Translations under genes and position numbers: made by a program | In this document: positions 1 to 14,324 of the stretch, in pieces | Position numbering within the stretch: the first letter of the stretch is position 1 | Layout of the letters: each line of letters opens with the position of its first letter | The notes under the pieces: model-generated | Told to the model about the DNA's origin: nothing | Seen by the model: the letters and a program-made list of their open reading frames with translations, nothing else | Databases searched by the model: none | NCBI GenBank assembly: GCA_000830295.1 | Contig: CP010425.1 | Coordinates: forward strand, 640,001 to 704,000 | Direction of reading: 5' to 3' | DNA from: an archaeon GW2011_AR15 | GTDB lineage: Archaea > Nanobdellota > Nanobdellia > Woesearchaeales > GW2011-AR15 | DNA length: 64,000 bases

Positions 1-2216
1 CTAACTATGATTTTCATGTTACAGGCGGAAAAATATCAAAGCAGAACCCTATAGTTGTCTGTGCGGACCTGGCAGGGTTCCTCGGAAGGGACAAGGTTCA
101 GATTACAGACTCCGAGACTCTTGCATATGAAAGATGCGAGCCGCCGAGGGGAGGAGGCAAGTATTCAGTAAAAGTTTACAATTTTGAATTGCCGCAGCAG
201 ATAAGCACCCCTACAAGCACAGGAGGAACAATAGGCAATATTGTAGAATGGGCAGAGAAATGGGTCAACACCTACGGAGACCCGGAATATGTGCTGTATT
301 ATGAGGTTTTCCCGAAGGGCGAAGAGGCATACTGGGAGCCAAGCGCATATGTTGTTGATGTTGCAACAATACTTACAAGCGAGGCAGTATTCTTCTTTTT
401 ATTTGACATGCTGATACCCGGGCTGGGCAGTGCAATAAAGAAAGGCGGTGGAGGGATATTAAAAAGCACGCTCTCCAATATAGGCGAGAATTTAGGGAAA
501 GCAATAAAGCAGATTGATATAGGCGGCATTTGGCACAATACTAAAACCCTGTCCACCACAGTAAGAAATATACTCCGCGGATCGAGCAACGAAGCAGCGG
601 AACGACTTGCGAGAGAAATAATTGAAAAAAGCAGCCAGGATGTTGTAGAAGAAACAGTAGAGGAGGTATTGGAGGAGTTTGCAGAACAGGGAATTTCCAG
701 AGAAGTGCGTAGTGCACTGAAAACAGAATTCAGAGAACTATGGCAGGAGAGCGAGGGAAGAGAGGTATCTGCACTATTTAAAGAATCAGGAGAGCTTGAA
801 GAGAGGGCAATAACCAGACTGAGAGGCTCCCTTGATGAACTGGAAGAACTGGATGACGCAGCGAAAAATGAGATTATGGATACAGTATCAGCAAGGCTTA
901 CAAAAGACTCATTCGAATCAGCTTCAGCGCGCGCTATCGGCAATCTTAGACTGGCAAACAAAGTCAACAGCGAGCTTCTGGACAGGGCAGCAGTATGGAG
1001 GGATGCATACCTGCCGGGAGGGGACAGGGCCAAGATAATCGGAGAAATACAGGGAATGGCAGATAAGGCCGCATATTTCAAGGATCTTGATTCTCTAACT
1101 GTAAGAAGGATGACCTCGAATATGGATGATATACTTGAGCTGGCGACAACCGGACAGACAAAAGAGTCTTTCGCCAGAGGGATATTGGGAGAAACATATG
1201 ATGAGGTTGCAAAAGGAGGGGATGAGGCAGTAGAAAAAGCCCTTAATGAACAAATCAGCACATGGCTAAAGGAAGCAGACCCTCTCCAGTATACTGCAGG
1301 GAAACTGAATGCCTACCTGAGAACGCAGGCAGGAAAGCCAAGGCATATGGTTTCACTTCTGATTGCGCTGAATGTCCATCTTGAGAACAGCATGGCAGAG
1401 AAATTCAGGCCGGTTGGAACAAATGCAGTAGGGCTGAGGACACCGTTCTTAGCAACAACAATATATGATGACCTGTATACTGAAACATTTGATTATACAA
1501 AAGACAAAAATATGTACGAGCAATTTTTTGAGCATTACTACGGATATGAAGACGACACAAACGAAACCGATGAGACTTATTTGAGATACAGGGGGCTTCT
1601 GCCTGAAGTCGAGAGGTATTTCCTTACACTGCTCACAGATGCAGGAGAAATGAAAAGGTTCCATTTGGCCAGCCCATGCAAAGCAGATATCATAGTTACT
1701 GAGACGACCTGTGAATGCTGGGGCGGGGAAAGAAAAGAGAAGGAGGTAGGCATCCCCATCCTTTCAGGTTTGCTCAGCCATGGCGCCTTATATCAGACAG
1801 GAAAAACGTACTATGTGGACGGCGAGCCGCTTAGGCTGGATCATTTTGATGGAGAAAACCCGATGCTCTATGCAGTGCAGGAAGGACAAATAGTTAAAGA
1901 GTGCACTCCGAGAGGAGTTCAGAATGTATTTGAAGACATTGGGGAGCTCGGCGAATATCTTCCATGGGCTCAGCCTACGTATACCCCAAGCTGCATCCAG
2001 GCAACTGTTGTGATGGATGAGACAGAAGGCTACAATTATTGTTACCACGGAGAACAAGACCTTGGAATGACATTATCCTATCTGGGCCTTAACTTTGCGC
2101 TTCCTATCGCAGGCACATTATTCCTCGGGCCAATAGGGGGAGTTGTAGGGGGAGTAGTGGGAGGACTTGGATACGCATCAATGCAGGTCAACCACCAGTG
2201 GCCAAATCATAACTAA
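1..2216 (+). CDS. Large membrane-associated protein, 5'-truncated by the window edge
   Basis: Frame is open from nt 3 (NYDFHVTGGKISK...), so the TTG at 189 is not the true start. Contains a hydrophobic segment (ATILTSEAVFFFLFDMLIPGLG), a long charged helical region, a Cys-containing domain and a C-terminal Gly-rich hydrophobic tail (GPIGGVVGGVVGGLG). Confidence 0.75.
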   Translation, partial: NYDFHVTGGKISKQNPIVVCADLAGFLGRDKVQITDSETLAYERCEPPRGGGKYSVKVYNFELPQQISTPTSTGGTIGNIVEWAEKWVNTYGDPEYVLYYEVFPKGEEAYWEPSAYVVDVATILTSEAVFFFLFDMLIPGLGSAIKKGGGGILKSTLSNIGENLGKAIKQIDIGGIWHNTKTLSTTVRNILRGSSNEAAERLAREIIEKSSQDVVEETVEEVLEEFAEQGISREVRSALKTEFRELWQESEGREVSALFKESGELEERAITRLRGSLDELEELDDAAKNEIMDTVSARLTKDSFESASARAIGNLRLANKVNSELLDRAAVWRDAYLPGGDRAKIIGEIQGMADKAAYFKDLDSLTVRRMTSNMDDILELATTGQTKESFARGILGETYDEVAKGGDEAVEKALNEQISTWLKEADPLQYTAGKLNAYLRTQAGKPRHMVSLLIALNVHLENSMAEKFRPVGTNAVGLRTPFLATTIYDDLYTETFDYTKDKNMYEQFFEHYYGYEDDTNETDETYLRYRGLLPEVERYFLTLLTDAGEMKRFHLASPCKADIIVTETTCECWGGERKEKEVGIPILSGLLSHGALYQTGKTYYVDGEPLRLDHFDGENPMLYAVQEGQIVKECTPRGVQNVFEDIGELGEYLPWAQPTYTPSCIQATVVMDETEGYNYCYHGEQDLGMTLSYLGLNFALPIAGTLFLGPIGGVVGGVVGGLGYASMQVNHQWPNHN

Positions 2217-2217
2217 A

Positions 2218-2892
2218 ATGGAAAACAAAAAAATAATCATTATAACAGGAATTGTTTTATTGATAGTGATAGCAGCGGCCCTGCTGTTAAGAAGCAGCCG
2301 GCAGCCGGCAGAATACGAGTATTATACAGAAGAGCCCGAGACATGGGTTGAAGGCCAGAGATTCACAGAGCCGCCAAATGATGTCAGGATAAATGTCTTT
2401 AAGGCAACAGGGGGGGAATCAACATTCTCCATAAACAAGCAGGATTTTCCAGGAGAGGACAAGGCATTCTTTGTCCAGGGGCTCTACAAAGGAAAATACT
2501 TCGGCACAGTCTACTATGACAATGAAACAAAGGAAAAAATAATCGAGATATCCCAGTCACTTGATCCCGACGATGGAGCAGCCGACATATTCATCCTTGC
2601 AAAAAGCGATGGCCCTGGTTTTGTGTTTTACATTTTTGTCGATGAGGACTGGAGGAATTCAGTCAGCTTTACCAACATAATATACGGCATGGACTTCAAC
2701 AACGACGCAACACTGATAGAGAGGGAATTCAATTTCACTGAACTAAGCACAGGAATATATATGGACAAGCTGGACGACTATAACGGATGGTATGACCAGA
2801 GCCCTGTTACAGGAGGGATAATGGTTGGAGAGATGAATATTGAAGACCTGAAAAAGACAAATGTCACTTCCACACTTGTATTATTGAGGTAA
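2218..2892 (+). CDS. Membrane-anchored hypothetical protein
   Basis: ATG at 2218 directly after the upstream TAA; MENKK followed by a hydrophobic anchor IIIITGIVLLIVIAAALLL. Confidence 0.8.
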   Translation: MENKKIIIITGIVLLIVIAAALLLRSSRQPAEYEYYTEEPETWVEGQRFTEPPNDVRINVFKATGGESTFSINKQDFPGEDKAFFVQGLYKGKYFGTVYYDNETKEKIIEISQSLDPDDGAADIFILAKSDGPGFVFYIFVDEDWRNSVSFTNIIYGMDFNNDATLIEREFNFTELSTGIYMDKLDDYNGWYDQSPVTGGIMVGEMNIEDLKKTNVTSTLVLLR

Positions 2893-2894
2893 AA

Positions 2895-3173
2895 ATGAGA
2901 AAAGCAGAGATAACCTTTACAACGCTTGTATATGCAGCGCTTGCTGTGCTTGTCATACTTGTGCTGATTGCAGTATTCTTTGCGCTGACAAACCCGGCAG
3001 TTGGAAGCATCTTCGGCATAATCACTGAGACAGGAGAAAGCAGCCAGGGGGCCAGGGATGATATAGCTATCTCGCTTGGAAGCTGCGAGCCTGGAACCAG
3101 CAGATGCGTTGCAGGAATAGAATATGTCTGCGGCTCAAACAAAAGATGGGGGAAGACAGAAAATGAATGCTAA
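2895..3173 (+). CDS. Small pilin-like protein (class III signal peptide)
   Basis: MRKA|EITF followed by a ~25-aa hydrophobic helix and a small 4-Cys C-terminal domain. Confidence 0.75.
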   Translation: MRKAEITFTTLVYAALAVLVILVLIAVFFALTNPAVGSIFGIITETGESSQGARDDIAISLGSCEPGTSRCVAGIEYVCGSNKRWGKTENEC

Positions 3174-3633
3174 GGGAGACCTTACAAGTGATAATGGAAT
3201 CCAGGCTATTTTGTTCGTTGTGCTGGCAGTGCTTGTAATGGTTTTTATAGTAAAATTCTATCTTGCCATGAAGCCGGTCCCGGAATGGTCAAGAGCCCTT
3301 GCAGCCACAGAGCAGGCAATAAACAGCCTTGACCCGGATAACACGGAACTGGTAAGAAAAGTCAATATAAAGCTTGTAGGATACCAGATAAAAGGCCTTT
3401 CCCAGGAGTCCTGCCCTGAAAATGAGGAGATGCCGTCCTGCATATGCGCCTGCACTGACCCCGGCTGCAGCAATGCAATGAAAGAAGAAAAAAAATTCTG
3501 CAGGAATGTAAAATACAACACAACCAACTTTGTGCTCAACCCCAGTTCAGATGATATAATCACTTACAGCATTGGGCTCAACGAGACTACAAAAGAGGTT
3601 ATAGAAAGAGTTAGCATTGGCGGAGCATCATGA
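3163..3633 (+). CDS. Pilin-like protein
   Basis: Likely start MNAKG|DLT at 3163 overlapping the previous stop; hydrophobic helix AILFVVLAVLVMVFIV; Cys cluster CICAC. Confidence 0.7.
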   Translation: MNAKGDLTSDNGIQAILFVVLAVLVMVFIVKFYLAMKPVPEWSRALAATEQAINSLDPDNTELVRKVNIKLVGYQIKGLSQESCPENEEMPSCICACTDPGCSNAMKEEKKFCRNVKYNTTNFVLNPSSDDIITYSIGLNETTKEVIERVSIGGAS

Positions 3634-3634
3634 A

Positions 3635-4060
3635 ATGTTCTCAAGAAAAGCCCAGACTGAGATTTCAGTATCAACATCAGTTGAGATAATAATTCTTGTA
3701 CTTGTCATCGGGCTGATGCTGGGCATAGCATACAGGGAGACAACATCCACAAGATATTCAATGCTCTTCCTCTCAAAAGACTCTGCGATGTTCATTGACG
3801 CGCTGCATGCATCTCCCAATAAGATAATAGTGAGATACCCCCAGAAGACAGAAGGATTCAATTTCAGGATTGCAGACAGCAAGGTTACGGTCTACGGCAA
3901 TGATACTGCTTCAGTAGGAGGGATTGTTGACCAGATTGTGGGCGAATCCTTCCCGTATACTTCAGAGAAGGACATAGTGTTCCAGCCGCTTCCGGCTGAC
4001 TATACAGGGGAATACGGGCTGATACTTACAAAAACAAATACAAAGCTGATACAGGACTAA
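3635..4060 (+). CDS. Pilin-like protein
   Basis: Likely start MFSRKA|QTE at 3635, then hydrophobic helix IIILVLVIGLMLGIAY. Confidence 0.75.
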   Translation: MFSRKAQTEISVSTSVEIIILVLVIGLMLGIAYRETTSTRYSMLFLSKDSAMFIDALHASPNKIIVRYPQKTEGFNFRIADSKVTVYGNDTASVGGIVDQIVGESFPYTSEKDIVFQPLPADYTGEYGLILTKTNTKLIQD

Positions 4061-4061
4061 A

Positions 4062-4553
4062 ATGAAAAAAAAGGCACAGACATACACAATCCTGAACTGG
4101 GCGCTGTACAGGATGCCGGTTATAATATTTGTAGCAATATTTTTTGCAATAGCACTGAGGTCTTATTACGGCACAGGCCTGGACAGCCATGATGTTGAAA
4201 ATATGGTTATGATAAAGAGGATAATTTATTCTGACAATATCCTCGCATACAGGGATCCTGTGACAGGCAGGACATTCCCGGGAATAGTTGACATCAATAA
4301 ATTCTCGACAGAGCATATCGAGGAGAATCTCCTGAATAACAACAACAGGATTGCAGTGTATATGGAACTCCAGTTTCTCGACACAGGCGAGATTGAAAAA
4401 GCATACATAAATGAAGAAAGGGCAAGGGCATGGGACGACTATGAGTTTGTCGGCGGGTTTGATTCTTCAAGCCTTGTCAGGTATGTAAGGATATATGACA
4501 ACGGCAGGCTCCGCGACGGAAGGCTTGGCATAAAGCTGCTGGTGAGGGAATGA
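4062..4553 (+). CDS. Pilin-like protein
   Basis: MKKKA|QTY followed by hydrophobic helix MPVIIFVAIFFAIAL. Confidence 0.75.
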   Translation: MKKKAQTYTILNWALYRMPVIIFVAIFFAIALRSYYGTGLDSHDVENMVMIKRIIYSDNILAYRDPVTGRTFPGIVDINKFSTEHIEENLLNNNNRIAVYMELQFLDTGEIEKAYINEERARAWDDYEFVGGFDSSSLVRYVRIYDNGRLRDGRLGIKLLVRE

Positions 4554-5005
4554 ACAAAAAGGCGCAGTGGCAGGACCTTGCAGATTTGTTTTTGGGAGGC
4601 ACACTCATAATAATGGCAGTCCTCGGATTCATAATATGGGTATCCTTCAATGACGGGATCATAGAAGAAAGGGTTGAGAAAAGAGCTGAGGCGCTCAACA
4701 ATGATGATGTTCTTGTCTCATTCCTGAACACAGAGATTGACGACAGGACTCTCTCAGAGTGGATAATAAGAGCCCATATAGATAGAGAGAATAATTCAAC
4801 AGAGTTTGAAGAAGTGTTGGACACTTTCCTTGCAGATGTCTACCAGCACAGGACATGCTGGACACTCTACAGGCAGGATGAAGAATGGATAAAAAAAGAG
4901 CCATGCTCTGAAGAAGCAGACCTTCTGGATTCAGCAATAGACATTCCGCTTCCTGACAAGACGGCACTCAACATAAGGCTTAACATAAAGGGATACGCAG
5001 AATGA
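4550..5005 (+). CDS. Pilin-like protein
   Basis: MNKKA|QWQD followed by hydrophobic helix; ATGA overlaps with both neighbours. Confidence 0.75.
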   Translation: MNKKAQWQDLADLFLGGTLIIMAVLGFIIWVSFNDGIIEERVEKRAEALNNDDVLVSFLNTEIDDRTLSEWIIRAHIDRENNSTEFEEVLDTFLADVYQHRTCWTLYRQDEEWIKKEPCSEEADLLDSAIDIPLPDKTALNIRLNIKGYAE

Positions 5006-6078
5006 AAAAGATGATGGCTTCAAAGAGCGGCAAGGTGTTCTTTACAGTGCTCCTCGGCATATTTTTCATAATGGCGCTCCTGCCTCTTGCCATGAATATT
5101 TCCTTCATGAACCAGGGGAAGTTCGGCAAATCCATAGGGGAATCCCAGCTCATACTCCTGAGGACGTATGAGAAAGGCGAAAAGATCCTCTATTATATTG
5201 ACCAGTCAGCAGTCCACTCCCTGAGGCAGTCTTTATACAATGCCTCGCAGGCCGGGTTTTCATCAGGAGACTGCGGAACATATGACGGCCATAATCTATG
5301 GAACTCAGAAACAGAAGAATGCTATCCAAACCTAAAGGAAGCTGTCAAAGAAAGCTTTATGTCTGAATTTAAGGATTATCTCGGAAGCTATGCAGCCTTC
5401 CCGGACATTGAATATGAATTTTATTTTGCTGAAGGGGATGTCATCATAGGAAAGGCAGCCAGCGAGCTTGCTATGGATGTTGCGGACGGGAATGCGACAG
5501 GAATTGAAAGAGTTGAGCACGCTGAGCCGGAAAATGGGACCGCACAGCAAAGCACAGGAGGAGGTTCAGGGGGCGGAGCATGCACAGTAGGAAGCAGGTT
5601 CAGGGCAATCCCATTAAACCCATGGCCTAATTACATAATAAAGGCATTCGGAGTTCCCGCACCATATCAGAGCGGCGGGATCCACACGGGTATTGATATC
5701 AGGAACCCTCTCATGAATGGCCAGGAGCCACCGATATATGCAGTTGACTGCGGCCGCATTGTCTATGTAGGCCCGCTATTCCTCAGCGGACCGAATGTCG
5801 GCAGGGGAAGCAAGGCAATAATAATAGACCACGGCAATAATGTCTATAGCATATACAGCCATAACTCATATGTTGAGCCGAAGATAATGAATGACATGAA
5901 TTCAAAAGGCTACTCAGATGTTACAGCCGGACAGGTCATAGGAAGGCAGGGCAACGAGGGATACAGCTCAGGCTCCCACGTGCATTTTGAAGTCCATACA
6001 GGGGTAAAGTTTTCAGGCAACTGGGTTACGCCCTGGGTTGGAGGAAGATACGAGGATCCATTAGCATGGCTAACATGA
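5002..6078 (+). CDS. Pilin-like N-terminus fused to an M23-family (LytM/lysostaphin-type) metallopeptidase
   Basis: KSG|KVFF plus hydrophobic helix; Gly-rich linker (TGGGSGGG); M23 motifs HTGIDI (HxxxD), IIIDHG..YSIYSH, GQVIGRQGNEGYSSGSHVHFEV (HxH). Confidence 0.85.
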   Translation: MKKMMASKSGKVFFTVLLGIFFIMALLPLAMNISFMNQGKFGKSIGESQLILLRTYEKGEKILYYIDQSAVHSLRQSLYNASQAGFSSGDCGTYDGHNLWNSETEECYPNLKEAVKESFMSEFKDYLGSYAAFPDIEYEFYFAEGDVIIGKAASELAMDVADGNATGIERVEHAEPENGTAQQSTGGGSGGGACTVGSRFRAIPLNPWPNYIIKAFGVPAPYQSGGIHTGIDIRNPLMNGQEPPIYAVDCGRIVYVGPLFLSGPNVGRGSKAIIIDHGNNVYSIYSHNSYVEPKIMNDMNSKGYSDVTAGQVIGRQGNEGYSSGSHVHFEVHTGVKFSGNWVTPWVGGRYEDPLAWLT

Positions 6079-8777
6079 AATTGATTTTGGCTCTGGTATG
6101 TTTCATTTTATTAGCGGCAGCAGCAAGCGCAGAGACATATCTTTACATGAAATTCAACTACACGCTTGAAAACCCTGATTACGGAAATGAACTTGAAAAT
6201 ATTGAAAACCTGAAAATAACAGAAATATTCACTATTGAAGATACTTACTGGAACAGCTATTATTTCTCCACAGCAGGAGATGCTCATGAATCATACCAGC
6301 TGAAGATATACGGAGGCAGCCAGCTTCTCTATGACGGGCCGGTATTCCCGCAGCTCGGAAGCGCAGCAATAAAATACAGCAGCGGATACAGCGGGCTTGT
6401 CATATATGACGGAAACAATGAAGTGCTTTCCAGAAATATAAATTTCTGCAACAATAATAATGCCTGCGAGCCATGCCTTGATGAAAACTGTACAAAGGCA
6501 GAGAGCGTTTTGACCTGTGGAGACTGCGCAACAGGAAGCGATGACAACTACTGTGACCTCTACAATGACGGGGTATGCGATGCAGACTGCTATGGCGCAG
6601 ACGGAGACTGCAGGCAGTGCGGGAGCTCATGCTATTACAGGGATGACGAAAATGTATACACAACCTGTTCAGGAATATATAACGGGAACATCTGCGAGCC
6701 AGGAGAGGGATGCACAGGCGCATGGGGATATGCAAATGATTCAGGATTCTCGTGCTGCATGCAGGGAACATGCGTCAAGCCCGAAGCAGGCGATTATGAA
6801 ATTGAAGGGAAAAGCTGCTCTGATTTTTCATGGACAGAATGCACAGCTGCAGAATCATGCAAGGGAGAAGAGATATACCTTGAGCACAACGGTGCCACAT
6901 GCTGCCAGGGAACATGCTCTGAAAAAAGCCAGCTGCTTCCGGATATTAACATTGACGCCGGAGAAAAAGGGCCGGTTCTCACGCTGATAGCTGCCGCAGT
7001 CCTTGCTGCAATACTCATCGTATTGTTTACCAGAAAAAAGAAGCCCCTGCCTCTTGCCATGCTCATTTTCCTCATGGCGCTGCCGTCAGCATTCCCTCTT
7101 GAGTCCCAGGCAGAGCAGATGCAGAAAATCTGCAATGTTGCAGAGGCATACAACATGCCCGCCACAACCCTCCTTGCAATAGCATACAAGGAAAGCGGAA
7201 TCCAGCATTACAATTCTGACGGAAGCATAAAGGTGAGTGCAGACGGCGGAGTTGGGATAATGCAGAGGCAGTGGGGAGGGGACCCTGCAAACCTCCCATC
7301 AGGCCCGCTGTATATCTGCCACGGGAACAGCGCCATAGACAGCAGGCAGCTGGACGCAAAAAAACTGGATGACAACATAGAATGCGGGGCCATTGAGCTG
7401 ATAAGAAAATGCGAGACATTCAACTGCATAGGCAACACAAAAGAATATTACTGCTCTAATTCCGGCAACCCTCTGCCTGAAAAAAGAGTGCTTTATTCAG
7501 GATGGGACATTGCACTGAGGGCATACAACGGCTGGGGATGCGAAGCGCCGTATTACAGGGATTTGTGGGGAGCAAACAGCCAGAAATACATAGACCTTCT
7601 TGGCAGGATCCAAAGCTATGTCGAGAGTTTCCATGAAACTGAAAAGCAGTTTACTTCTGTCTGTGACGGCACAACCCCAGGCGGGCCTGAAGAGCCTGCT
7701 CCAGGGGAAGATACCTCAGATATACCGCAGGAGATACTTGACGGCACAAAAATAGGGATATATTATATCAATCCTTCTTTCAGGACATATGCAAATGTCA
7801 ATTTTGAGGAAATATACAATGAGGTGGCATACAGCAGCCAGCTTATTGAAGAAGCCCTGGTCTATATTGGTGAAGGCAGCTCAACCTCTAAGGCAGTCGA
7901 AAGAGCACTTCAGGCTAAAGACAACTGGCAGATTAAGTCATGCTCTGGAAAGATGTGCAGCTTCATAGTTGATACAGGCTATTCTGTTTTTGTATACAGT
8001 GAAGGGGCATATGAGGAAAAGCCCATTGAGCTGAAATTCAGCCTGACAATAGATGAATCAGGAGTAAAGAACTTTACAGCTTTTGAATATGACGAGCTGC
8101 CTTATGAGCAGCAGCCAGTGGAGGAAGAGCCAGAGGAGCAGCCTCCAGTGGAACAGCCGCCAACAACAGGAGGGCACCTGGACGGCATAGATGTGTCGCA
8201 CTGGCAGGGGAACATAGACTGGCAGCAGGTAAAGTCAGACGGGAAGCAGTTTGCGTTCATAAAAGCGACAGAGTCAACAAATTTTATTGATAATAAGTTC
8301 TACTACAATATAAACGAGGCCACAAAAGCAGGTATAATGGCAGGTGCATATCATTTTGCCAGGCCGTCAGCAAACGATGCAAGGTCAGAAGCAAGGTTCT
8401 TTGCAGGCGTGGCAGGACAATATGTAGGCAGTGGCTATCTTAGGCCGGTGCTTGACCTTGAGAAAGGCTCAGAGCTGGGCAGCGCAAGGCTCTCAGCATG
8501 GGTGAATGAGTTCATGGAGGAATTCAGGGCAATTACAGGAGTTGAGCCGATAATATATGCAAATGCGAATTATGTAAGGAATTACCTCGACTCGTCAACA
8601 AACAGGTATGATTTATGGGTAGCGCATTATTATGTCCCGCAGCCCGGCATATCAAGACCATGGCAGTTCTGGCAGTACACAGACAGAGGAGTTGTAAAGG
8701 GCATAGGCGAGCTGGTTGACCTTAATTATTTCAGCGGCGACACTGCAGCACTGAATTCAAGGTTTGTGGTTGCCTAA
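6075..8777 (+). CDS. Membrane-anchored multidomain protein: Cys-rich ectodomain, SLT-type lytic transglycosylase, GH25 muramidase
   Basis: Signal peptide MKLILALVCFILLAAAASA (ATG 6075, ATGA overlap). SLT motifs LAIAYKESG / GVGIMQ / DNIECGA / ALRAYNG at ~7110-7660. GH25 motifs GIDVSHWQG / FAFIKATE / GAYHFARP / LDLE / LWVAHY / FWQYT / VDLN at ~8170-8770. Confidence 0.88.
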   Translation: MKLILALVCFILLAAAASAETYLYMKFNYTLENPDYGNELENIENLKITEIFTIEDTYWNSYYFSTAGDAHESYQLKIYGGSQLLYDGPVFPQLGSAAIKYSSGYSGLVIYDGNNEVLSRNINFCNNNNACEPCLDENCTKAESVLTCGDCATGSDDNYCDLYNDGVCDADCYGADGDCRQCGSSCYYRDDENVYTTCSGIYNGNICEPGEGCTGAWGYANDSGFSCCMQGTCVKPEAGDYEIEGKSCSDFSWTECTAAESCKGEEIYLEHNGATCCQGTCSEKSQLLPDINIDAGEKGPVLTLIAAAVLAAILIVLFTRKKKPLPLAMLIFLMALPSAFPLESQAEQMQKICNVAEAYNMPATTLLAIAYKESGIQHYNSDGSIKVSADGGVGIMQRQWGGDPANLPSGPLYICHGNSAIDSRQLDAKKLDDNIECGAIELIRKCETFNCIGNTKEYYCSNSGNPLPEKRVLYSGWDIALRAYNGWGCEAPYYRDLWGANSQKYIDLLGRIQSYVESFHETEKQFTSVCDGTTPGGPEEPAPGEDTSDIPQEILDGTKIGIYYINPSFRTYANVNFEEIYNEVAYSSQLIEEALVYIGEGSSTSKAVERALQAKDNWQIKSCSGKMCSFIVDTGYSVFVYSEGAYEEKPIELKFSLTIDESGVKNFTAFEYDELPYEQQPVEEEPEEQPPVEQPPTTGGHLDGIDVSHWQGNIDWQQVKSDGKQFAFIKATESTNFIDNKFYYNINEATKAGIMAGAYHFARPSANDARSEARFFAGVAGQYVGSGYLRPVLDLEKGSELGSARLSAWVNEFMEEFRAITGVEPIIYANANYVRNYLDSSTNRYDLWVAHYYVPQPGISRPWQFWQYTDRGVVKGIGELVDLNYFSGDTAALNSRFVVA

Positions 8778-9307
8778 TTATCCGAATCATTCAGAAAGTC
8801 AAGAAGCAGCTGGACAGAGCCCTTTTCTTTTTCAGAAAATATTTTTTCTATATACCTAGACAGCAGGAAACCGTAGAACATAGGAGGGTCCTGGGCACCA
8901 GGCCAGTCATAATCTACAGGATCATAAAAGCTTACCCCGTTTTCCTCCCTGATTAAATATGCCTGTGTGAACTCTACATCATCAATCTCGTCATTATATT
9001 CCTTAAGGACGTTGGTATATTCTCTGTTTGCGGCTTCCTTGTCAAATTCCCCTGCATCCACCACTCTGAACCATGGGCTGTGATGTTTTTTCCACAGCTT
9101 TTCAGGAGGCTCGCCGCCCTCATTAGCAATCCTGTACAGCTCATCAGCAAGCCTGTCAACAGACATCTCTGAGAAAAAAGTTCCATGGTTGTCATGCCTG
9201 AAGCCGGGGTCCTGTGCTATAATCTGCTTATAGAACTCTGCAGTGAGTATCCTCACTTCCCCCATTTCCCCGAGAGGGTGCGTGGTTATGGCAACATACT
9301 CATACAT
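8774..9307 (-). CDS. Hypothetical protein
   Basis: 177-aa ORF with natural composition and a TATA-like sequence upstream; no motif recognised. Confidence 0.65.
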   Translation of the reverse strand: MYEYVAITTHPLGEMGEVRILTAEFYKQIIAQDPGFRHDNHGTFFSEMSVDRLADELYRIANEGGEPPEKLWKKHHSPWFRVVDAGEFDKEAANREYTNVLKEYNDEIDDVEFTQAYLIREENGVSFYDPVDYDWPGAQDPPMFYGFLLSRYIEKIFSEKEKGSVQLLLDFLNDSDN

Positions 9308-9395
9308 TATCCACGGTAATTATAATTTATTTAAATAGCTATTTCTGAAACCATAACATTTTAAATATATAGCGTGTTTCCAGAGTTTCAGGTGG

Positions 9396-10622
9396 GTGAT
9401 TGTTTTGATTAAGATTCCTAGGGAGTTTATAATAGAAAAAATAAAGGAGAAGACGAAGCTTTCAGATAAGGATATACAGTCCAGGATAAAGGACAAGCTG
9501 GACAAGCTTTCCGGCCTGATAAGCGAGGATGGCGCCCTGCATATAATAGCCAATGAACTGGGGGTCAAGCTTCTTGATGAGCCCGGGGAGCTCCAGGTTA
9601 AGAGTGTCATGGCAGGCATGAGGAGCGTCGGAATTACAGCCAAGGTCATCAAGATATATGAAGTCAGGGAATTCAGTAAGGAGAACAGGAAAGGCAGGGT
9701 CGGGAATTTCTTAGTCGGTGACGAAACCGGGGTGATAAGGGTCGTTGCATGGAATGACAAGGCAGACCTGCTGAAGAAGCTGAGTGAAGGGGCTGTTGTG
9801 AAAATTGAGAATGGCTATTCAAAAGAAAATATGGGAAAGCCTGAGATACATCTCGGTGAAAAGACAAAAGTAACAATTCTTGAAAATGCAGATATTGAAG
9901 TGAAGGAAAAGGCAGTGCAGAGAAAAACAATCTCAGAGCTTAATGATAGTGACTCAAATGTTGAGGTAATGGGCACAATCGTGCAGGTTTTTGACCCCAG
10001 GTTTTTCACAGTTGACCCTCAGTCCGGAAAAAAAGTTGTTGAGAAGAACGGCGGATTCTTTTTGGGAGACAAGCAGATTGACAATCCTGATTATTCATAT
10101 GTCACAAATGTTTTCCTGGACGACGGCACAGAGAACATAAGAGTTGTATTATGGAAAAGCCAGACACAAAGGCTGCTTGGAAAAAGCCATGAGGACATTC
10201 TTGCCGGAAGGGAGAATGGGTTTGAGGAAGAAAAGAACGAGCTTCTTGGGAAGATTGTGAAATTCACAGGAAGGACAAACAAGAACGAGATGTTTGACAG
10301 GGTTGAATTCATAGCCCAGCTTGTTGATACGCAGCCCAATCCTGAAGAGGAGATTAAGAGGCTGGATGGCGAGCTTGAGAAGCAGCATGAGACAGAAGAA
10401 GTTGCTGAAAAGCCAGAAGCTGCTGAAGAAGTTGAGGAGATTACAATAGAGACAGAAGAAGCTGAAGAGAAAGATGCTGTTGAAGAAGAGATAAAAGAAG
10501 CGGAAGAGCACAAAAAGACAGCTCCCAAGCCCGGAAAAAAGGAAGAATCAAAAAAACAAGAGCCAGATGACCTCGAAGAGATAGATGATATTGATGACTT
10601 GATGGATTTGGATTCTATTTAA
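9396..10622 (+). CDS. rpa: Replication protein A (OB-fold ssDNA-binding protein) with acidic tail
   Basis: Two OB folds (GRVGNFLVGDETGVIRVVAW; FLDDGTENIRVVLW), N-terminal GLISEDGALHIIANELGV, Glu-rich C-terminus. Exact start uncertain. Confidence 0.85.
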   Translation: MIVLIKIPREFIIEKIKEKTKLSDKDIQSRIKDKLDKLSGLISEDGALHIIANELGVKLLDEPGELQVKSVMAGMRSVGITAKVIKIYEVREFSKENRKGRVGNFLVGDETGVIRVVAWNDKADLLKKLSEGAVVKIENGYSKENMGKPEIHLGEKTKVTILENADIEVKEKAVQRKTISELNDSDSNVEVMGTIVQVFDPRFFTVDPQSGKKVVEKNGGFFLGDKQIDNPDYSYVTNVFLDDGTENIRVVLWKSQTQRLLGKSHEDILAGRENGFEEEKNELLGKIVKFTGRTNKNEMFDRVEFIAQLVDTQPNPEEEIKRLDGELEKQHETEEVAEKPEAAEEVEEITIETEEAEEKDAVEEEIKEAEEHKKTAPKPGKKEESKKQEPDDLEEIDDIDDLMDLDSI

Positions 10623-10623
10623 T

Positions 10624-11043
10624 TTATTTTAATATCTGGTATTCTGTATGGTCGTCATAGCCAAGCATAAAATTAAGTATCCATGCGTCGCCCGGAAGAC
10701 TGTCAACCATAGACCAGACAACTATTTCAAGAGGACTTTGCTGGTAGAAACTCGTCATTCTCACTAAGTCGCCTGCTTCAATAGAAGGTACTTCTGACTG
10801 GTATTTTTCAAAATAATCGCTATTCTTGCTGTAATTAATATAGATATACCCTCTGTCTACCGGGAAGCCCATCTCCAGTCCTTGCTCATGCATTATCCTT
10901 GAATAATCCTCGAAATGCTCGATTTCCAGAACATTGACATCATACACCTCTTTTCTTGGTATCCAGGGAAGCAGGCTTCCAGCAACTGCTGTATAAATAC
11001 CCAGTGCTGCCATCATTCTTTTCTGCCCATTTGAAAGAGTCAT
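10624..11043 (-). CDS. Hypothetical membrane-anchored protein
   Basis: 139-aa ORF with an N-terminal hydrophobic stretch. Confidence 0.6.
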   Translation of the reverse strand: MTLSNGQKRMMAALGIYTAVAGSLLPWIPRKEVYDVNVLEIEHFEDYSRIMHEQGLEMGFPVDRGYIYINYSKNSDYFEKYQSEVPSIEAGDLVRMTSFYQQSPLEIVVWSMVDSLPGDAWILNFMLGYDDHTEYQILK

Positions 11044-11078
11044 GAGTACAGAGAAATATTAGTTATATTTAAAGATAA

Positions 11079-11507
11079 ATGAAGAGGGAGAAAGCAGATA
11101 GCTTTTTATTTAACATGTCATTCTGGCCTCTGATGAAAGATTTATACGATATAATAACAGACCCAGAGCACAGCATGGTTTTTGAACTGGATGGCAATTA
11201 TGTAAGAGCCTATAAACTCACCGAAAACAAGATAGAGAAAGCATGGCATATTGAGGCAAAAGAGGCATACGCAATCCTGCTAGGCAGGGACAGCCTGTAT
11301 ATAGGTTCATGGGGAGGGATATCAAGAATATCAGCGGAGGACGGCAGCCTGCTTGCAAAAACAGAAAAGAATATCTACGTAAGGCCCGGCCAAATCATGA
11401 ATCTGATAGGGGATAAACTGGTTGTGATGAACAGCATGGGCGGCCAGGCGCTTTATGATGCAGACACACTAAAAGAAGTATATGTCAAAACAGACAGCTA
11501 TCGTTAG
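11079..11507 (+). CDS. Hypothetical protein, partial beta-propeller-like repeats
   Basis: PQQ-like blade signatures LYIGSWGGISRISAEDG and ALYDADTLKEV. Confidence 0.55.
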   Translation: MKREKADSFLFNMSFWPLMKDLYDIITDPEHSMVFELDGNYVRAYKLTENKIEKAWHIEAKEAYAILLGRDSLYIGSWGGISRISAEDGSLLAKTEKNIYVRPGQIMNLIGDKLVVMNSMGGQALYDADTLKEVYVKTDSYR

Positions 11508-11520
11508 CTATCTTCACTGG

Positions 11521-12012
11521 CTATCCAACATACTCTATCTCAAAAGAATTCTTCTTAGGATCCGGCCTGTACATTTCAAAAATATCAGTAACTGCGTGTT
11601 CTATGCCTGAAAGCTGCCCTACAGGAAACTCTTCATCTTTTTTCAGCCTTTTCATGTAGAAGCTTCCTGTGTGTTTCTGCTCTTTTCCCGATTGCCATTT
11701 TCCTGAAATATTAAGCAGCCATTCATTTCCTTCATAGACTGCTTCATATGAAATGGATCTCGTTACAATACTGTCTTTCCCTTTTTCTTGACAATACATG
11801 CGCGCATTAGAATTGCCAAACTCCACGCCGGCTTCCTTTAAGAAATCTACTAATGCACTCTCAAACTTGCTTATTGGCGGCTTGTTAAATTTTGACTGGC
11901 CGCGAACTCTCGGCGTCCTGAATCCCGGATACATAGATCCCTGTATAATCTTATCCACTTCAGAATTGTTCAGCTCTCCCCTGATTTGCAGAGACTGGTA
12001 GCCTTTGGTCAT
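11521..12012 (-). CDS. Hypothetical protein
   Basis: 163-aa ORF with TATA-like sequence upstream; no motif recognised. Confidence 0.6.
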   Translation of the reverse strand: MTKGYQSLQIRGELNNSEVDKIIQGSMYPGFRTPRVRGQSKFNKPPISKFESALVDFLKEAGVEFGNSNARMYCQEKGKDSIVTRSISYEAVYEGNEWLLNISGKWQSGKEQKHTGSFYMKRLKKDEEFPVGQLSGIEHAVTDIFEMYRPDPKKNSFEIEYVG

Positions 12013-12167
12013 GTAAGGGAGTACTGGAAAGTTATATTTAAAGCTATTCTACGACCTGAAGATGCAGAAAAACAGATTGAGGACAATATCAAAGAATAAT
12101 ATTATTACTTATAAGTAGTTACAAATTGGAAAGGTTTAAATAATAGCAATTTTTACTACTTTTTGCT

Positions 12168-12314
12168 ATGAAAATCAAAGTATCTGTCTCTATGGAGGAA
12201 TCCACCCTGAAAAAAGTAGAGGAGAAGCTTAAGAAAAGCATTTTCAGGAATAAGAGCCATTTTATAGAGTATGCCACAGAGAAGCTGCTGGAGGAGGCTG
12301 CAAATGAGCAGTAG
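12168..12314 (+). CDS. Ribbon-helix-helix (CopG/Arc/MetJ) DNA-binding protein, 48 aa, absent from the ORF track
   Basis: MKIKVSVSMEESTLKKVEEKLKKSIFRNKSHFIEYATEKLLEEAANEQ: alternating beta-strand, helix, then FRNKSHFIEYA second helix; TTTAAATA TATA box upstream. Confidence 0.8.
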   Translation: MKIKVSVSMEESTLKKVEEKLKKSIFRNKSHFIEYATEKLLEEAANEQ

Positions 12315-13905: not shown

Positions 13906-13913
13906 AGAACCTG

Positions 13914-14324
13914 TTAATGCAGCCTGTCAGAAAGCTCCATTACTCTTTTCTGCCAGCCATTCATACGGTTCATCACCACTATTTCATAATGCTTAGGTTC
14001 ATCATAAACAAGCTGCCTTGGAAAGTCAGAGCTCGGCTTCACTATTGCCCGCCCGTAGAACAGAAGGCTGCCTTTATAGCGCACTTCAACATATTTTTCA
14101 ACAGAAGAGCTGTGCTCATGATCAATGGGGTTGTTTGATATGCTTACCAGCTCTATATCTCTGAAAAGATAAGTGCCGTCTGAATATTCTTTCCCAAACT
14201 CGTTATCAGAAAACTCTGTATCGCCGACATGACTTGAGCTCAGCTTCTGGACATGCGTGCCATGCTTCTCTGCAATCAGCCTTACTCTGTTGGCCAGATC
14301 CTGGTCCGGATCCAAAATATTCAT
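13914..14324 (-). CDS. Hypothetical protein
   Basis: 136-aa ORF; TTTAAATA on the minus strand ~25 nt upstream. Confidence 0.6.
   Translation of the reverse strand: MNILDPDQDLANRVRLIAEKHGTHVQKLSSSHVGDTEFSDNEFGKEYSDGTYLFRDIELVSISNNPIDHEHSSSVEKYVEVRYKGSLLFYGRAIVKPSSDFPRQLVYDEPKHYEIVVMNRMNGWQKRVMELSDRLH

Follow-up and report, generated by a model that had tools for sequence, protein, structure and literature searches.

A pilin-like operon with interchangeable wall-hydrolase modules in a Woesearchaeota-like DPANN archaeon

Positions 2,895–8,777 of the analysed window (64,000 nucleotides of contig CP010425.1 from archaeon GW2011_AR15) are the 3′ (distal) half of a ~16-kb chromosomal operon of ~15 genes, most of them pilin-like. 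A carrier module is conserved, combined with wall hydrolases that are interchangeable; the particular trio of M23, SLT and GH25 domains found here is not. The best explanation of the sequence data is that the operon of this Woesearchaeota-like DPANN archaeon codes for the subunits of a type-IV-filament-like structure on the cell surface, and we lean towards the view that wall-cutting enzymes would be presented to bacteria on contact by a minor pilin of modular build together with its membrane partner.

Results

Layout and extent of the operon

The first-pass annotation had described six consecutive, coupled genes followed by a membrane protein, and the open reading frames lie exactly where it placed them, all on the plus strand, with neighbours among g1–g7 separated by 1-base gaps or overlapping by 4 to 13 bases. 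The proposed unit, 2,895–8,777, is real but incomplete: the true one is about three times longer and begins upstream of the window. The genes inside the window are listed below (a slash separates positions −1 and +1; fractions are orthologues retaining the class-III-like motif).

1–2,216, plus strand: g0, 935-aa protein whose first codons lie upstream of the window (start at genome 639,409); the window contains its 3′ 737 codons
2,218–2,892, plus strand: g0b, conserved protein of 224 aa, anchored in the membrane by a plain N-terminal segment and lacking a class-III-like motif
2,895–3,173, plus strand: g1, 92-aa pilin-like protein, MRKA/EITF... then a hydrophobic helix and a Cys-rich C-terminus
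3,163–3,633, plus strand: g2, 156-aa pilin-like protein, MNAKG/DL... (2/2; family in 46 loci)
3,635–4,060, plus strand: g3, 141-aa pilin-like protein, MFSRKA/QTE... (8/8; 65 loci)
4,062–4,553, plus strand: g4, 163-aa pilin-like protein, MKKKA/QTY... (7/8)
4,550–5,005, plus strand: g5, 151-aa pilin-like protein, MNKKA/QWQ... (5/5; 57 loci)
5,002–6,078, plus strand: g6, N-terminal carrier and C-terminal M23
6,066–8,777, plus strand: g7, 903-aa membrane protein

Directly upstream of the window stand F91 and F96, pilin-like proteins that are well conserved, only 91 and 96 aa long and likely the main filament subunits; g1 is related to them (F96 match 55% over 29 residues). G293, g0 and g1–g6 read as larger, minor-pilin-like subunits. 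The g0 product has a hydrophobic helix at its N-terminus and a Gly-rich hydrophobic segment at its C-terminus, and matched no Pfam family; its orthologues (~1,000–2,000 aa) are present in 9 of 17 family-level loci, only 6 of 10 bear a class-III-like motif, and the protein is possibly a large filament-associated or adhesin subunit. The best-conserved subunit is g4, with the core R-x-L-Y-S-P...Y-P-G-I-I-D and 369 family representatives at E ≤ 0.001. Its likeness to g5 is confined to the leader and N-terminal helix (hhalign probability 80.6%, 60 N-terminal columns only).

Class-III-like N-termini

The N-terminal motif marks g1–g6 as pilin-like, with putative cleavage. Of the class III signals earlier attributed to all six genes, motif-level support stands, but no curated pilin or Class_IIIsignal model in Pfam or NCBIfam matched any operon protein, and the window's own g6 reads K-S-G instead of K/R-G/A, leaving no charged residue at −2; it is one of two motif-less proteins in the 11-protein family-level g6 set. 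The rule used, [KR][GA] ahead of a hydrophobic helix, is a crude one that we wrote after FlaFind-type rules. It selects 64 open reading frames genome-wide, 11 of which fall within 9.4 kb (genome 635,619–645,005) of the 1,158 kb. Besides g3, g4 and g5 (fractions above), orthologues of F91/F96 (9 of 10), G293 (9 of 9) and g6 (9 of 11) retain the motif, which is rare in the neighbouring controls g0b (1 of 10), the internal control of the scan, and g7 (3 of 17, two of the three being g6–g7 fusions). Outside the leader and the N-terminal helix, the pilin-like families show no resemblance to one another, as is usual among pilins.

Wall-hydrolase modules of g6 and g7

The modules of the two distal genes are as follows.

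5,002–5,526, plus strand: g6 carrier module, leader and hydrophobic helix (residues 1–36) and conserved N-domain
5,671–6,009, plus strand: g6 effector module, Peptidase_M23 (residues ~224–336; H228-x3-D232, H289, H326-x-H328)
6,066–6,959, plus strand: g7 Sec-type signal peptide (1–23) and Cys-rich N-domain (24–298)
6,960–7,100, plus strand: g7 membrane hairpin, helix 299–321 ending TRKKK and a second hydrophobic, signal-peptide-like segment 326–345 (...SQA/EQ)
7,101–7,670, plus strand: g7 SLT/GH23-like domain (residues ~346–535; E376-S, G-I-M-Q, Y-N-G-W)
7,743–8,105, plus strand: g7 D3, conserved alpha/beta domain (~560–680; pLDDT ~75–89; 30 loci)
8,178–8,753, plus strand: g7 GH25 muramidase (residues ~705–896; D709, D797, E799)

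As we read it, g6 is a modular pilin made of a constant N-terminal carrier (leader, helix and a ~130-residue domain) and an exchangeable wall-cutting module. The fusion of the sixth gene to M23 was borne out by an intact Peptidase_M23 domain (Pfam, 4.1e-16; 59.4 bits, cut-off 28.7), whose HxxxD and HxH motifs line up with those of solved M23 enzymes. A 44-row alignment of the N-domain displays IGExQ...TYEKGEK...YID and two near-invariant Cys, and a structural lead from the Atlas connects the N-module with a TadE-like cluster (TM 0.52/0.61). The AlphaFold model of g6 is poor (mean pLDDT 51.9), so that a pilin fold is putative.

We read g7 as a hairpin-anchored protein that would expose a glycan-strand cleaver of SLT/GH23-like type along with a GH25 muramidase. 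By the positive-inside rule, the hairpin is predicted to put both flanking parts outside the cell; residues 299–326 also give a weak LPXTG_anchor-like match (E 0.065). Both enzymes had been proposed beforehand, and GH25 is firm (Glyco_hydro_25, 1e-48), with cellosyl 1jfx as best PDB match (2.4e-37) and the residues aligned to its D9, D98 and E100 kept. The SLT domain is divergent: the window protein scores only 13.7 bits, below the cut-off of 21.3, but orthologues 50% and 48% identical to it in this domain pass, with 24.3 and 23.7 bits. The motifs E-S, G-x-M-Q and Y-N-G are invariant in all nine aligned orthologues, MltC leads the PDB matches of a profile made from that alignment (E 0.005), and the top Foldseek matches are GH23 folds, none at E ≤ 0.001; a chitinase ranked second in the fold search, and GH23 also includes chitinase. 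The Cys-rich N-domain, which matched no Pfam family, is mostly family-restricted (15 loci) and occurs as a free-standing 319-aa protein in one locus (L034). D3 recurs next to hydrolase modules and has a weak Foldseek likeness to a VirB8-like domain (probability 0.60, E 0.1).

Exchange of modules across relatives

Hydrolase linkage is conserved, but the exact trio of M23, SLT and GH25 on which the first-pass annotation had built is not. Among ten family g6 orthologues, five carry Peptidase_C39_2, one M23 with NlpC/P60, and four are without a Pfam match; a profile built from these four and L055 matches NlpC/P60 structures best (E 0.00094). The nine g7 orthologues carry SLT, NlpC/P60, GDSL, GH25, NAGPA or Beta-lactamase2, two of them being without a match. 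At order level, we surveyed 79 proteins at the g6 or next-gene position of 54 loci, where the commonest modules are M23 (15), SLT (12), 3D (4), M15/VanY (2) and GDSL (2), with one each of Amidase_2, Amidase_3, GH3, NAGPA, NlpC/P60 and Phage_lysozyme2. The g6 C-terminal module and the next gene draw on ~14 Pfam families, mostly acting on peptidoglycan or other wall polymers; the GDSL, NAGPA, GH3 and metallophosphoesterase modules are not murein-specific. One database protein (P0012) combines M23, GH25 and SLT in a single chain, and carries PF01464. When 920 open reading frames of at least 150 aa were searched with local profiles, 14 of 15 M23 and 9 of 11 SLT matches fell on the 79 frames at this position. 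The same profiles found no hydrolase in 32 of the 54 order loci, to which Pfam adds at most 17 family-protein matches, so that ~15 to 27 loci are without a recognised wall enzyme at the position.

The 17 family-level loci share the gene order [F91/F96]-G293-g0-g0b-g1...g6-g7-RPA in full or in large part, and the core order g3-g4-g5-g6 followed by RPA is found across the order. A g4 profile matched 128 of 151 genomes of the order (a count that takes in two unpublished genomes), mostly with one copy per genome, and the g6 N-module was found in 157 of the 201 genomes sampled from the phylum and in 54 of 60 fetched order-level loci. RPA lies within four genes downstream in 41 of the 54 order loci bearing the g6 N-module, with RadA a few genes further on in the loci read. 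In other orders of the class, the g6 N-module frames among the matches listed measure only 150–295 aa, hence the carrier occurs without a large module. Conservation in relatives of the linkage between pilin-like genes and hydrolases, named at the outset as a point on which the idea could fail, is borne out.

Host genome and assembly machinery

That the substrate should be foreign had been argued from archaeal biology in general and is upheld by the genome itself, a closed archaeal contig of 1.16 Mb. Whole-genome searches detected no PBP transpeptidase, no FtsW/RodA and no murein-synthesis genes, so any murein cut by these enzymes should come from another organism. The M23 of g6 and the GH25 of g7 are the sole members of their families above cut-off genome-wide. 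The closest named homologues of the genome are labelled Nanoarchaeota or Woesearchaeota, and archaeal core genes (RPA, RadA, GatD, PolB) flank the locus on either side. A chimera with bacterial DNA, raised at the outset as a possible artefact, is excluded on two grounds: the synteny extends throughout the order, and contigs of four other runs also tile the locus.

No ATPase, platform or prepilin peptidase was matched among 1,669 open reading frames in the 78 loci examined. Elsewhere in the host genome there are one Peptidase_A24 match (a single prepilin peptidase) and, in two loci, three T2SSE ATPase and four T2SSF matches. The fimU-pilVWXY1E cluster of Pseudomonas aeruginosa likewise comprises a run of minor pilins with a large non-pilin or adhesin, whose products form a tip or priming complex, while the genes for ATPase, platform and peptidase lie elsewhere; its likeness to this operon is one of organisation, with no sequence relationship. 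Type-4-filament systems are sparse in DPANN according to the available part of a recent census (PMC13705601).

Discussion

Murein hydrolases of DPANN archaea and a possible bacterial host are already known: a role of Woese- and Pacearchaeota as episymbionts or predators of bacteria by means of such enzymes has been published (PMC8204110, PMC9723730 and the accessible part of PMC12352652). In the literature on these hydrolases that we searched, we found no mention of pilin-operon wiring or module swapping. The SLT proteins described in 2021 (PMC8204110, fam00969) and by Vigneron et al. in 2022 (PMC9723730) come from the same kind of DPANN archaeon and share the SLT/GH23 domain with g7, and both studies infer binding or degradation of bacterial walls by such archaea, which they regard as possible episymbionts or predators of bacteria. 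Theirs are isolated large proteins, and 'pili' occurs in neither paper, whereas the enzymes described here occupy a fixed site of a conserved pilin-like operon in which SLT is one of ~14 interchangeable modules and a peptidase sits on a pilin-like carrier. The bacteria-killing archaeal hydrolases of Strock et al. (2025, PMC12352652) also place murein hydrolase domains in archaea without murein and, in the accessible text, are most diverse in GTDB Nanoarchaeota. As that text describes them, they were found by pairing catalytic with peptidoglycan-binding domains and act secreted in a haloarchaeon, and neither 'pilin' nor 'pili' appears in it; in the present operon, by contrast, the hydrolases come with a pilin-like carrier or a membrane hairpin, and no wall-binding domain is recognised.

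The nearest architectural parallel to g6 is offered by modular type IV pilins (Streptococcus sanguinis PilB and PilC; Raynaud et al. 2021, PMC8179133), which combine a class-III-type leader, a small constant carrier and bulky, very diverse modules, are encoded among minor pilins and are thought to be tip-exposed. They differ in carrying adhesion or lectin modules instead of murein hydrolases, and the survey describing them is bacteria-only ('archaea' and 'hydrolase' each have 0 occurrences); in our case the host is archaeal, the carrier matches no known pilin family and incorporation into a filament is putative. PrgK of the pCF10 type IV secretion system (10.1101/2024.02.15.580431), as far as the accessible text goes, is membrane-anchored, unites LytM/M23, SLT and CHAP/NlpC-type domains and is encoded in the operon of a trans-envelope machine. 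It opens the producer's own wall, whereas our archaeon lacks such a wall, so that any wall opened must belong to another cell.

In the reading that we favour, the subunits would be processed by the single prepilin peptidase of the genome and assembled by either of the two ATPase/platform sets found at other loci into a filament or short pseudopilus bearing g6 at or near its tip. On touching a bacterium, g6 would cut peptide cross-links and g7 glycan strands, and the sacculus, opened locally, would permit attachment, feeding or lysis.

Rather unlikely, in our estimate, is surface-tethered scavenging, in which the class-III-like N-termini only anchor or cluster the proteins, and g6 and g7 digest murein debris and dead cells for amino sugars and peptides, with no penetrating filament and no living target. 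In the Sulfolobus bindosome, sugar-binding proteins bear class III signals. That non-pilin proteins can do so, also indicated by a figure on 'binding proteins' in the available part of the filament census (PMC13705601), speaks for such scavenging, as do the absence of assembly machinery in cis (78 loci), the GH3, NAGPA, GDSL and metallophosphoesterase modules suited to breaking down wall polymers for food, and a 1.16-Mb genome fitting reliance on scavenged building blocks. Yet anchoring would not call for a dozen conserved, single-copy, co-ordered pilin-like genes, those of two small duplicated subunits among them, and a carrier with an exchangeable module is the typical architecture of presented effectors (PMC8179133). 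Archaeal peptidoglycan hydrolases kill bacteria and, in the accessible text of PMC12352652, are particularly frequent and varied in GTDB Nanoarchaeota; together with the similarity of the hydrolase domains to phage endolysins, this would suit released lysins, g6 and g7 being weapons or defences against competitors, like the peptidoglycan hydrolases shown for Halogranum, beside pilin genes by inherited gene order only. We consider this improbable: both proteins retain membrane-anchoring segments, the g6 hydrolase is fused to a class-wide conserved carrier and not to a cell-wall-binding domain, and the hydrolase matches concentrate at a single operon position.

An envelope-crossing channel for DNA or macromolecules, akin to a competence pseudopilus or a conjugation system, whose hydrolases would open a partner's wall in the manner of PrgK, appears highly improbable. 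In its favour are the recurrence of RPA behind the operon (41 of 54 order loci) and of RadA a few genes on, the VirB8-like likeness of D3, and the set of M23/LytM, SLT and NlpC/P60-type domains, which matches the three domains predicted for PrgK in the accessible part of that report (10.1101/2024.02.15.580431). The adjacency to RPA and RadA may, however, be plain conserved synteny, the likeness of D3 lies far below significance, and no T4SS genes, VirB4, VirD4 or ComEC-type genes came up incidentally. We give the lowest rating to the possibility that these proteins are not pilins at all but N-terminally anchored components of an envelope complex, for example of cell-surface or division architecture, in which KK[AG] is a mere positive-inside signal and the hydrolases were recruited for another role. 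It would account for the lack of curated pilin matches, the poor fold model of g6 and the motif-less g0b and g7. Against it, G or A at −1 is conserved right before the helix across otherwise unrelated families, Q is frequent at +1, as is common in many archaeal pilins, the host genome has a prepilin peptidase, and the Atlas lead points to TadE-like pseudopilins. The contact-dependent presentation of wall hydrolases by a modular minor pilin and its membrane partner, which we prefer, suggests a lineage that physically attacks or feeds on bacteria.

Operon layout and genomic setting

The six pilin-like genes g1-g6 and g7, the next gene, which encodes a 903-aa membrane protein, are separated by single-base gaps or overlap by 4 to 13 bases, and the first-pass annotation had placed these reading frames (2895-8777, six genes and then g7) exactly at the ORF coordinates found here. 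The unit itself had been drawn too short: it comprises about fifteen genes, of which g1-g7 form the distal seven and the first lie upstream of the window.

Genes of the operon (window coordinates unless stated otherwise)
L017 12249-14903 = genome 632,249-634,903, same strand as the operon: first gene of the upstream run, 884-aa surface protein with TSP3 calcium-binding repeats
Upstream of the window, after the 884-aa gene, same strand: pilin-like genes of 162, 326, 163 and 156 aa
Upstream of the window, same strand: F91/F96, small pilin-like paralogues of 91 and 96 aa (MNNKAQ/SISINTIVVAAIAL...)
Between F91/F96 and g0, same strand: G293, 293-aa pilin-like gene
Crossing the window start, same strand: g0, 935 aa, followed by g0b, 224 aa
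2895-3173, +: g1, ORF
3163-3633, +: g2, ORF
3635-4060, +: g3, ORF
4062-4553, +: g4, ORF
4550-5005, +: g5, ORF
5002-6078, +: g6, ORF; Pfam Peptidase_M23
6066-8777, +: g7, ORF; Pfam Glyco_hydro_25

The 884-aa TSP3 protein has a Sec signal, a C-terminal anchor, a match to the binary-toxin B calcium-binding domain and a weak fn3 match, and is a possible adhesin heading the operon. Further upstream, a 1,661-aa ORF (genome 619,015-624,000, minus strand, spanning the fetched loci L018/L017) starts with a class-III-signal-like N-terminus (GKRSQ/ASIFAIIGLLIVIII...).

Directly downstream of the locus comes the gene of an RPA-type single-strand-binding protein (RPA). A 177-aa gene on the opposite strand (8774-9307, minus) without a family match sits between g7 and RPA; in the maps of relatives inspected, RPA usually comes directly or after same-strand genes, and the opposite-strand gene is possibly a recent insertion. 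Across the order (L047-L106), RPA is followed by a ~150-aa membrane protein (MMFKTHLAFGF...), a ~100-aa protein and RadA, a neighbourhood located in the window at 9396-10622 and 15240-16235. Its position next to the operon may be conserved synteny only, or may point to a connection of the filament with the handling of DNA.

The genome consists of one contig of 1,157,790 bases with an estimated completeness of 96.8%. Core genes in the window (RadA with Rad51 and HHH_5 domains, GatD, a family-B DNA polymerase and several aminoacyl-tRNA synthetases) flank the locus on both sides, and the host is therefore an archaeon. Two NCBI homologues are labelled 'Nanoarchaeota archaeon', and the nearest ESM Atlas clusters are labelled Woesearchaeota/Nanobdellota, labels that support the taxon name indirectly. 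Elsewhere in the window, GC content drops to 0.326 at 54001-56000 against ~0.44 for the remainder, and the sole tRNA is tRNA-His (40166-40237).

A chimera with bacterial DNA, the pitfall named by the first-pass annotation, was ruled out by the single closed contig, the order-wide synteny with RPA and independent bridging contigs. Short contigs from four non-source runs tile positions 1-16500, with at most one letter of difference in the pieces listed, and bridging contigs span the g5/g6, g6/g7, g7/next gene and next gene/RPA junctions. The runs are groundwater and soil metagenomes from four different studies. A viral or mobile origin was likewise rejected, given the RPA-adjacent operon throughout the order, the lack of relatives of the SLT-like domain of g7 on viral contigs, and the PHROGs profiles, whose matches are limited to the catalytic domains of M23 and GH25 and include no pilin-like gene.

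Predicted wall-cutting enzymes of g6 and g7

The M23 domain attributed to g6 was borne out by HMM search (Pfam PF01551, 59.4 bits versus a cut-off of 28.7, E = 4.1e-16, residues 227-333), with both motifs intact. The zinc-binding and catalytic motifs of the family, HxxxD and HxH, read H228-T-G-I-D232 and H326-V-H328 in g6, which line up with HNGID and HLH in M23 enzymes of known structure. The GH25 muramidase of g7 is equally secure, matching the entire Pfam profile (PF01183, positions 1-180 of 180, 166.5 bits versus a cut-off of 27, E = 1e-48); its top PDB match is cellosyl (1jfx, 2.4e-37), and D709, D797 and E799 of g7 align with D9, D98 and E100 of cellosyl, the acidic catalytic residues.

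The SLT transglycosylase proposed for g7 fared less simply: the domain in the window's own protein falls below the Pfam cut-off, but orthologues pass it, the motifs are invariant and the lytic transglycosylase MltC is the first structural match. The excised middle of g7 scored 13.7 bits against Pfam SLT (PF01464, cut-off 21.3), whereas its orthologues in L022 and L023, 50% and 48% identical in the domain, reached 24.3 and 23.7 bits, respectively. PF01464 is also present in the database relative P0012 (precomputed), which combines M23, GH25 and SLT in a single chain, and in 12 of 79 proteins at the g6 or next-gene position across the order (best E = 1.1e-29). The motifs of SLT family 1 are the catalytic Glu in E-S, G-L-M-Q and A-Y-N-x-G; in a nine-row alignment, the Glu of E-S, the G and Q of G-x-M-Q, and Y-N-G were invariant (9/9). 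A profile of this alignment found MltC as its first PDB match (E = 0.005), with E-S and G-x-M-Q in register. In the structural model of g7 (mean pLDDT 61.8, ~70-85 in the SLT-like domain), nearly every top Foldseek match of this domain had a GH23 fold (MltC, MltF, MltE, Slt, goose-type lysozyme and GH23 chitinase; target-normalised TM ≤0.59), none at E ≤ 0.001. We accept the middle of g7 as a divergent GH23/SLT-like domain, which may act as a lytic transglycosylase, lysozyme or chitinase.

At its N-terminus, g7 has a Sec-type signal peptide and a domain rich in Cys. Next come a hydrophobic helix with TRKKK at its end, a second signal-peptide-like segment, the SLT-like domain, a conserved alpha/beta domain (D3), a linker rich in Pro and Glu, and finally GH25. 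The positive-inside rule predicts that the two large parts lie outside the cell. g7 has the appearance of two secreted proteins joined together: its Cys-rich N-terminal part ends in the anchor-like helix with KKK, and the SLT part begins with the signal-peptide-like segment (window 6960-7100). In L034 (4632-5591), the N-terminal part is a separate 319-aa protein. D3 (window 7743-8105, g7 ~560-680) occurs in 30 loci beside differing hydrolase modules and belongs to no Pfam family; a weak Foldseek resemblance (probability 0.60, E = 0.1) links it to a VirB8-like domain from a Gram-positive conjugation protein.

A substrate predicted to be foreign to the archaeon

Neither PBP transpeptidase nor FtsW/RodA was found in the genome, in agreement with the earlier claim that the predicted wall substrate is foreign to this archaeon. 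An own wall or pseudomurein was judged an unlikely substrate on the same grounds and because the single Mur_ligase_M-type gene belongs to a family that also matches both archaeal control genomes. The beta-1,3 bonds of pseudomurein are not known to be cut by lysozymes. Genome-wide, the only M23 and GH25 domains above cut-off are those of this operon. Sub-threshold matches to SLT (15.2 bits; L040, genome 986,633-986,758) and M23 (20.7 bits; L108, genome 384,162-384,416) mark possible further divergent wall hydrolases.

Pilin-like character of g1-g6

Substrates of the class III signal carry a short positive leader ending in G or A, followed at once by ~20 hydrophobic residues. Under our own motif rule, drawn from FlaFind-type criteria ([KR][GA] near the start and a strongly hydrophobic stretch within ~10 residues), 64 ORFs were detected genome-wide, 11 of them inside genome 635,619-645,005. 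At the level of the motif, the class III signals of the first-pass annotation hold for g1-g5, but not as readily for the window's own g6, which is atypical in having K-S-G instead of K/R-G/A. In orthologues from the family-level set of 17 loci, the motif was present in F91/F96 (9/10), G293 (9/9), g3 (8/8), g4 (7/8), g5 (5/5) and g6 (9/11), as opposed to 1/10 for g0b and 3/17 for g7 as control genes, two of the latter three being g6-g7 fusions. Since the interleaved g0b and g7 lack the motif, it is not a by-product of composition.

Profile-profile comparison showed g4 and g5 to be alike in the leader and N-terminal helix only (probability 80.6%, 60 columns), and the match of the N-terminal carrier module of g6 (g6N) to g4/g5 was confined to the KK[AG] leader; such likeness restricted to the N-terminus is as expected of pilins. 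Curated pilin and class III signal models (Pfam including PF04021, NCBIfam) matched neither g1-g6 nor the pilin-like genes upstream. In the 'lollipop' fold of pilins, an extended N-terminal helix packs against a beta-sheet head; the AlphaFold model of g6 (mean pLDDT 51.9; helices 8-36 and 45-87, and a small sheet) was too poor for a fold search. As leads only, an ESM Atlas model of g6N resembles a TadE-like cluster (TM 0.52/0.61), and the nearest named Atlas clusters are DUF7286/7287/7288 (scores 0.77-0.82), families that gave no Pfam match to the operon proteins and no mention in the literature searched. Complex prediction for the globular parts of g4, g5 and g6N with our own alignments scored 0.08 versus a mark of 0.32, which speaks neither for nor against binding. 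Given the missing curated match, the K-S-G of g6 and its poor model, we call g1-g6 pilin-like at the level of motif and organisation only.

Assembly machinery

For type IV pilins, the genes of an assembly ATPase and a platform protein usually lie close by. The prepilin peptidase family Peptidase_A24 has one match in the genome (891,267-891,596; 42.7 bits versus a cut-off of 26.5), the T2SSE-type ATPase three and T2SSF four, at ~345-354 kb and ~804-807 kb, all distant from the operon. When the ATPase, platform and peptidase proteins of the genome were used as queries, no relatives were recovered among 1,669 ORFs of 78 loci, indicating that the operon encodes subunits only, a layout familiar from bacterial minor-pilin operons. 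The filament machine serving the operon may be one of the sets encoded elsewhere in the genome.

A second run of pilin-like genes (window 23483-31193, plus strand) forms a distinct surface-filament locus, also without a nearby ATPase. Its first gene (MKKRGQ/VAVEY...) weakly matches Pfam Class_IIIsignal (PF04021, 19.4 bits, cut-off 23.7). A Cohesin domain is present in the gene at 25902-26816, which is followed by a gene whose 1,447-aa product has a MopE metal-binding motif.

Exchange of hydrolase modules within the family

Relatives of g7 were found in 24 of 41 related genomes, including 18 of 19 within the same family. Whole or in large part, the arrangement [F91/F96]-G293-g0-g0b-g1-g2-g3-g4-g5-g6-g7-RPA reappears in the 17 family loci around these g7 relatives. 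The linkage of pilin-like genes and hydrolases seen in the window is conserved in relatives, with module types that vary. Five of ten g6 orthologues carry Peptidase_C39_2, one M23 with NlpC/P60, and four gave no Pfam match; a profile of these four and L055, an order-level relative, has NlpC/P60 structures as its best match (6biq, E = 0.00094). Among nine g7 orthologues, Pfam detected NlpC/P60 (3), GDSL (3), SLT (2), NAGPA (2), GH25 (1) and Beta-lactamase2 (1), and two had none; g6 and g7 are merged into one protein in two genomes. The g6 fusion of the window is itself rare, with four other similar-length proteins matching among 2,788 candidates. Overall, g6N is followed in the same chain by M23, C39_2, NlpC/P60-like or SLT domains, and in one Atlas cluster a g6N-like part is paired with VanY. 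This is the modular-pilin architecture of a constant carrier and an exchangeable module, as judged from domain content, the pilin nature of the carrier being assigned at motif level.

A fixed hydrolase position across the order

The g4 family comprises 369 representatives at E ≤ 0.001 in a library of 1.84 billion proteins. Its profile matched 128 of 151 order genomes (99 of 116 high-quality ones; 126/149 without two unpublished genomes), nearly always in single copy. The profile of the g6 carrier was matched by 157 of the 201 genomes in a phylum-level sample, among them genomes from other orders of the class, where the g6N open frames listed measure only 150-295 aa.

Sixty order loci were chosen from the g4-profile matches by sufficient surrounding contig and spread of E-values, irrespective of content, and mapped with iterated local profiles; ORFs were called by a crude longest-ORF rule, and their N-termini may be overlong. 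g6N was found in 54 of the 60 loci, in proteins of 166 to 1,257 aa, and RPA lay within four genes after it in 41 of the 54. Among the 79 proteins at the g6 and next-gene positions of these 54 loci (a tally, like the further Pfam tally for 32 loci below, that leaves out ORFs <150 aa between g6 and RPA), Pfam detected M23 (15), SLT (12), fn3 (6), 3D (4), Peptidase_M15/VanY, GDSL and Metallophos (2 each), and Amidase_2, Amidase_3, GH3, NAGPA, NlpC/P60 and Phage_lysozyme2 (1 each). By local profiles, 22 of the 54 loci have M23, SLT or the NlpC-like domain; for the other 32 (43 proteins), Pfam added 3D (5), SLT (4), M15/VanY (2) and one each of GH3, Amidase_2, GDSL, NAGPA, NlpC/P60 and a weak M23. 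A recognisable wall-acting domain thus occupies this position in ~27 to 39 of the 54 loci, figures that are bounds because the Pfam tallies, which come from alignment-mode scans, are totals that cannot be assigned to individual loci.

Hydrolases are specific to this position in the operon: the 60 loci contain 920 ORFs ≥150 aa, and the 79 at the g6 and next positions hold 14 of 15 M23 and 9 of 11 SLT local matches. At least one of the remaining matches also belongs to the operon: in one order-level genome (L104, 15653-17584, minus strand), a pilin-like protein of the g2 family, and not g6, carries the SLT domain, so that more than one subunit may serve as carrier.

Proposed function and alternatives

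All functional statements on the operon are inferences from its genes. In the mechanism we propose as the most parsimonious, g6 would be a modular minor pilin whose carrier is conserved class-wide and whose module is swapped among non-homologous wall hydrolases, and g7-type proteins would contribute cleavage of the glycan strand from the membrane. Between them, g6 and g7 would attack the two kinds of bond in a sacculus not made by the archaeon itself, which is why we lean, by a modest degree, towards contact-dependent opening of bacterial walls. The pilus-delivered wall breaching put forward in the first-pass annotation retains the enzymes, the conserved operon and the foreign substrate in its favour; against it stand the failure of pilin models to match and the lack of machinery genes in the operon.

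The same enzymes might be tethered to scavenge wall debris, which we regard as rather unlikely, or be released as antibacterial lysins, which is improbable. A channel for the transfer of DNA or other macromolecules would accommodate the RPA/RadA neighbours and a PrgK-like domain set, yet we give it a slim chance, and a membrane complex other than a pilus a slimmer one.

A broader reading, which we put forward tentatively and do not favour outright, is that one vertically inherited type-IV-filament organelle spans the Woesearchaeales-like order (>130 sampled families) as a dedicated breacher of bacterial walls with a universal, re-armable carrier pilin, the warheads on its terminal subunit being M23, SLT, 3D, GH25, amidases, M15/VanY, NlpC/P60 and C39-like domains. 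If so, a major DPANN lineage would have bacteria, not archaea, as its principal hosts or prey, and the type of warhead in each lineage would match the wall chemistry of its host.

Relation to known systems and significance

Large SLT-domain proteins have been noted in Woese- and Pacearchaeota, which were suggested to be episymbionts of bacteria (PMC8204110). Two other papers describe Woesearchaeota termed 'predatory', which possess a pore-forming toxin and GH23 (PMC9723730), and archaeal peptidoglycan hydrolases that kill bacteria and are richest in Nanoarchaeota (PMC12352652). The word 'pili' is absent from all three, and 'pilin' from PMC9723730 and PMC12352652. Conversely, a 2026 census of archaeal type-4 filaments reports that these systems are sparse in DPANN (PMC13705601), and the words 'peptidoglycan' and 'hydrolase' are absent from it. 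Bacterial modular pilins share the design of carrier and module and are thought to be located at the tip (PMC8179133); that survey covers bacteria, with adhesion, lectin and one peptidase module, in contrast to the wall hydrolases on an archaeal carrier here. The operon is not described in the literature searched; Table S3 of PMC8204110, on Module 98 families, and S10 Fig of PMC13705601, on DPANN type-4-filament loci, may list its families or the locus itself. Within that literature, the hydrolases' fixed place in a conserved pilin-like operon, the architecture of carrier plus exchangeable module, and the order-wide breadth of such operons appear to be new.

To our knowledge, the hosts of Woese- and Pacearchaeota are essentially unknown. 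The DPANN archaea cultivated so far all live on another archaeon, according to PMC11291902. A conserved surface apparatus with wall-specific enzymes in a fixed place offers a concrete handle on the host question, as the enzymes can be tested on defined sacculi once expressed, and the g6N carrier can serve as a marker for the apparatus in metagenomes and on cells. Module type predicts host wall chemistry, be it a Gly-Gly or DD-endopeptidase, an amidase, a muramidase or a D-Ala-D-Ala peptidase, and possible O-acetyl or teichoic-acid esterase modules would be likewise predictive. If the proposed function is true, the 'modular pilin' principle would extend from bacteria to archaea with enzymes as cargo, and a contact-dependent candidate would join the newly recognised antibacterial hydrolases of archaea.
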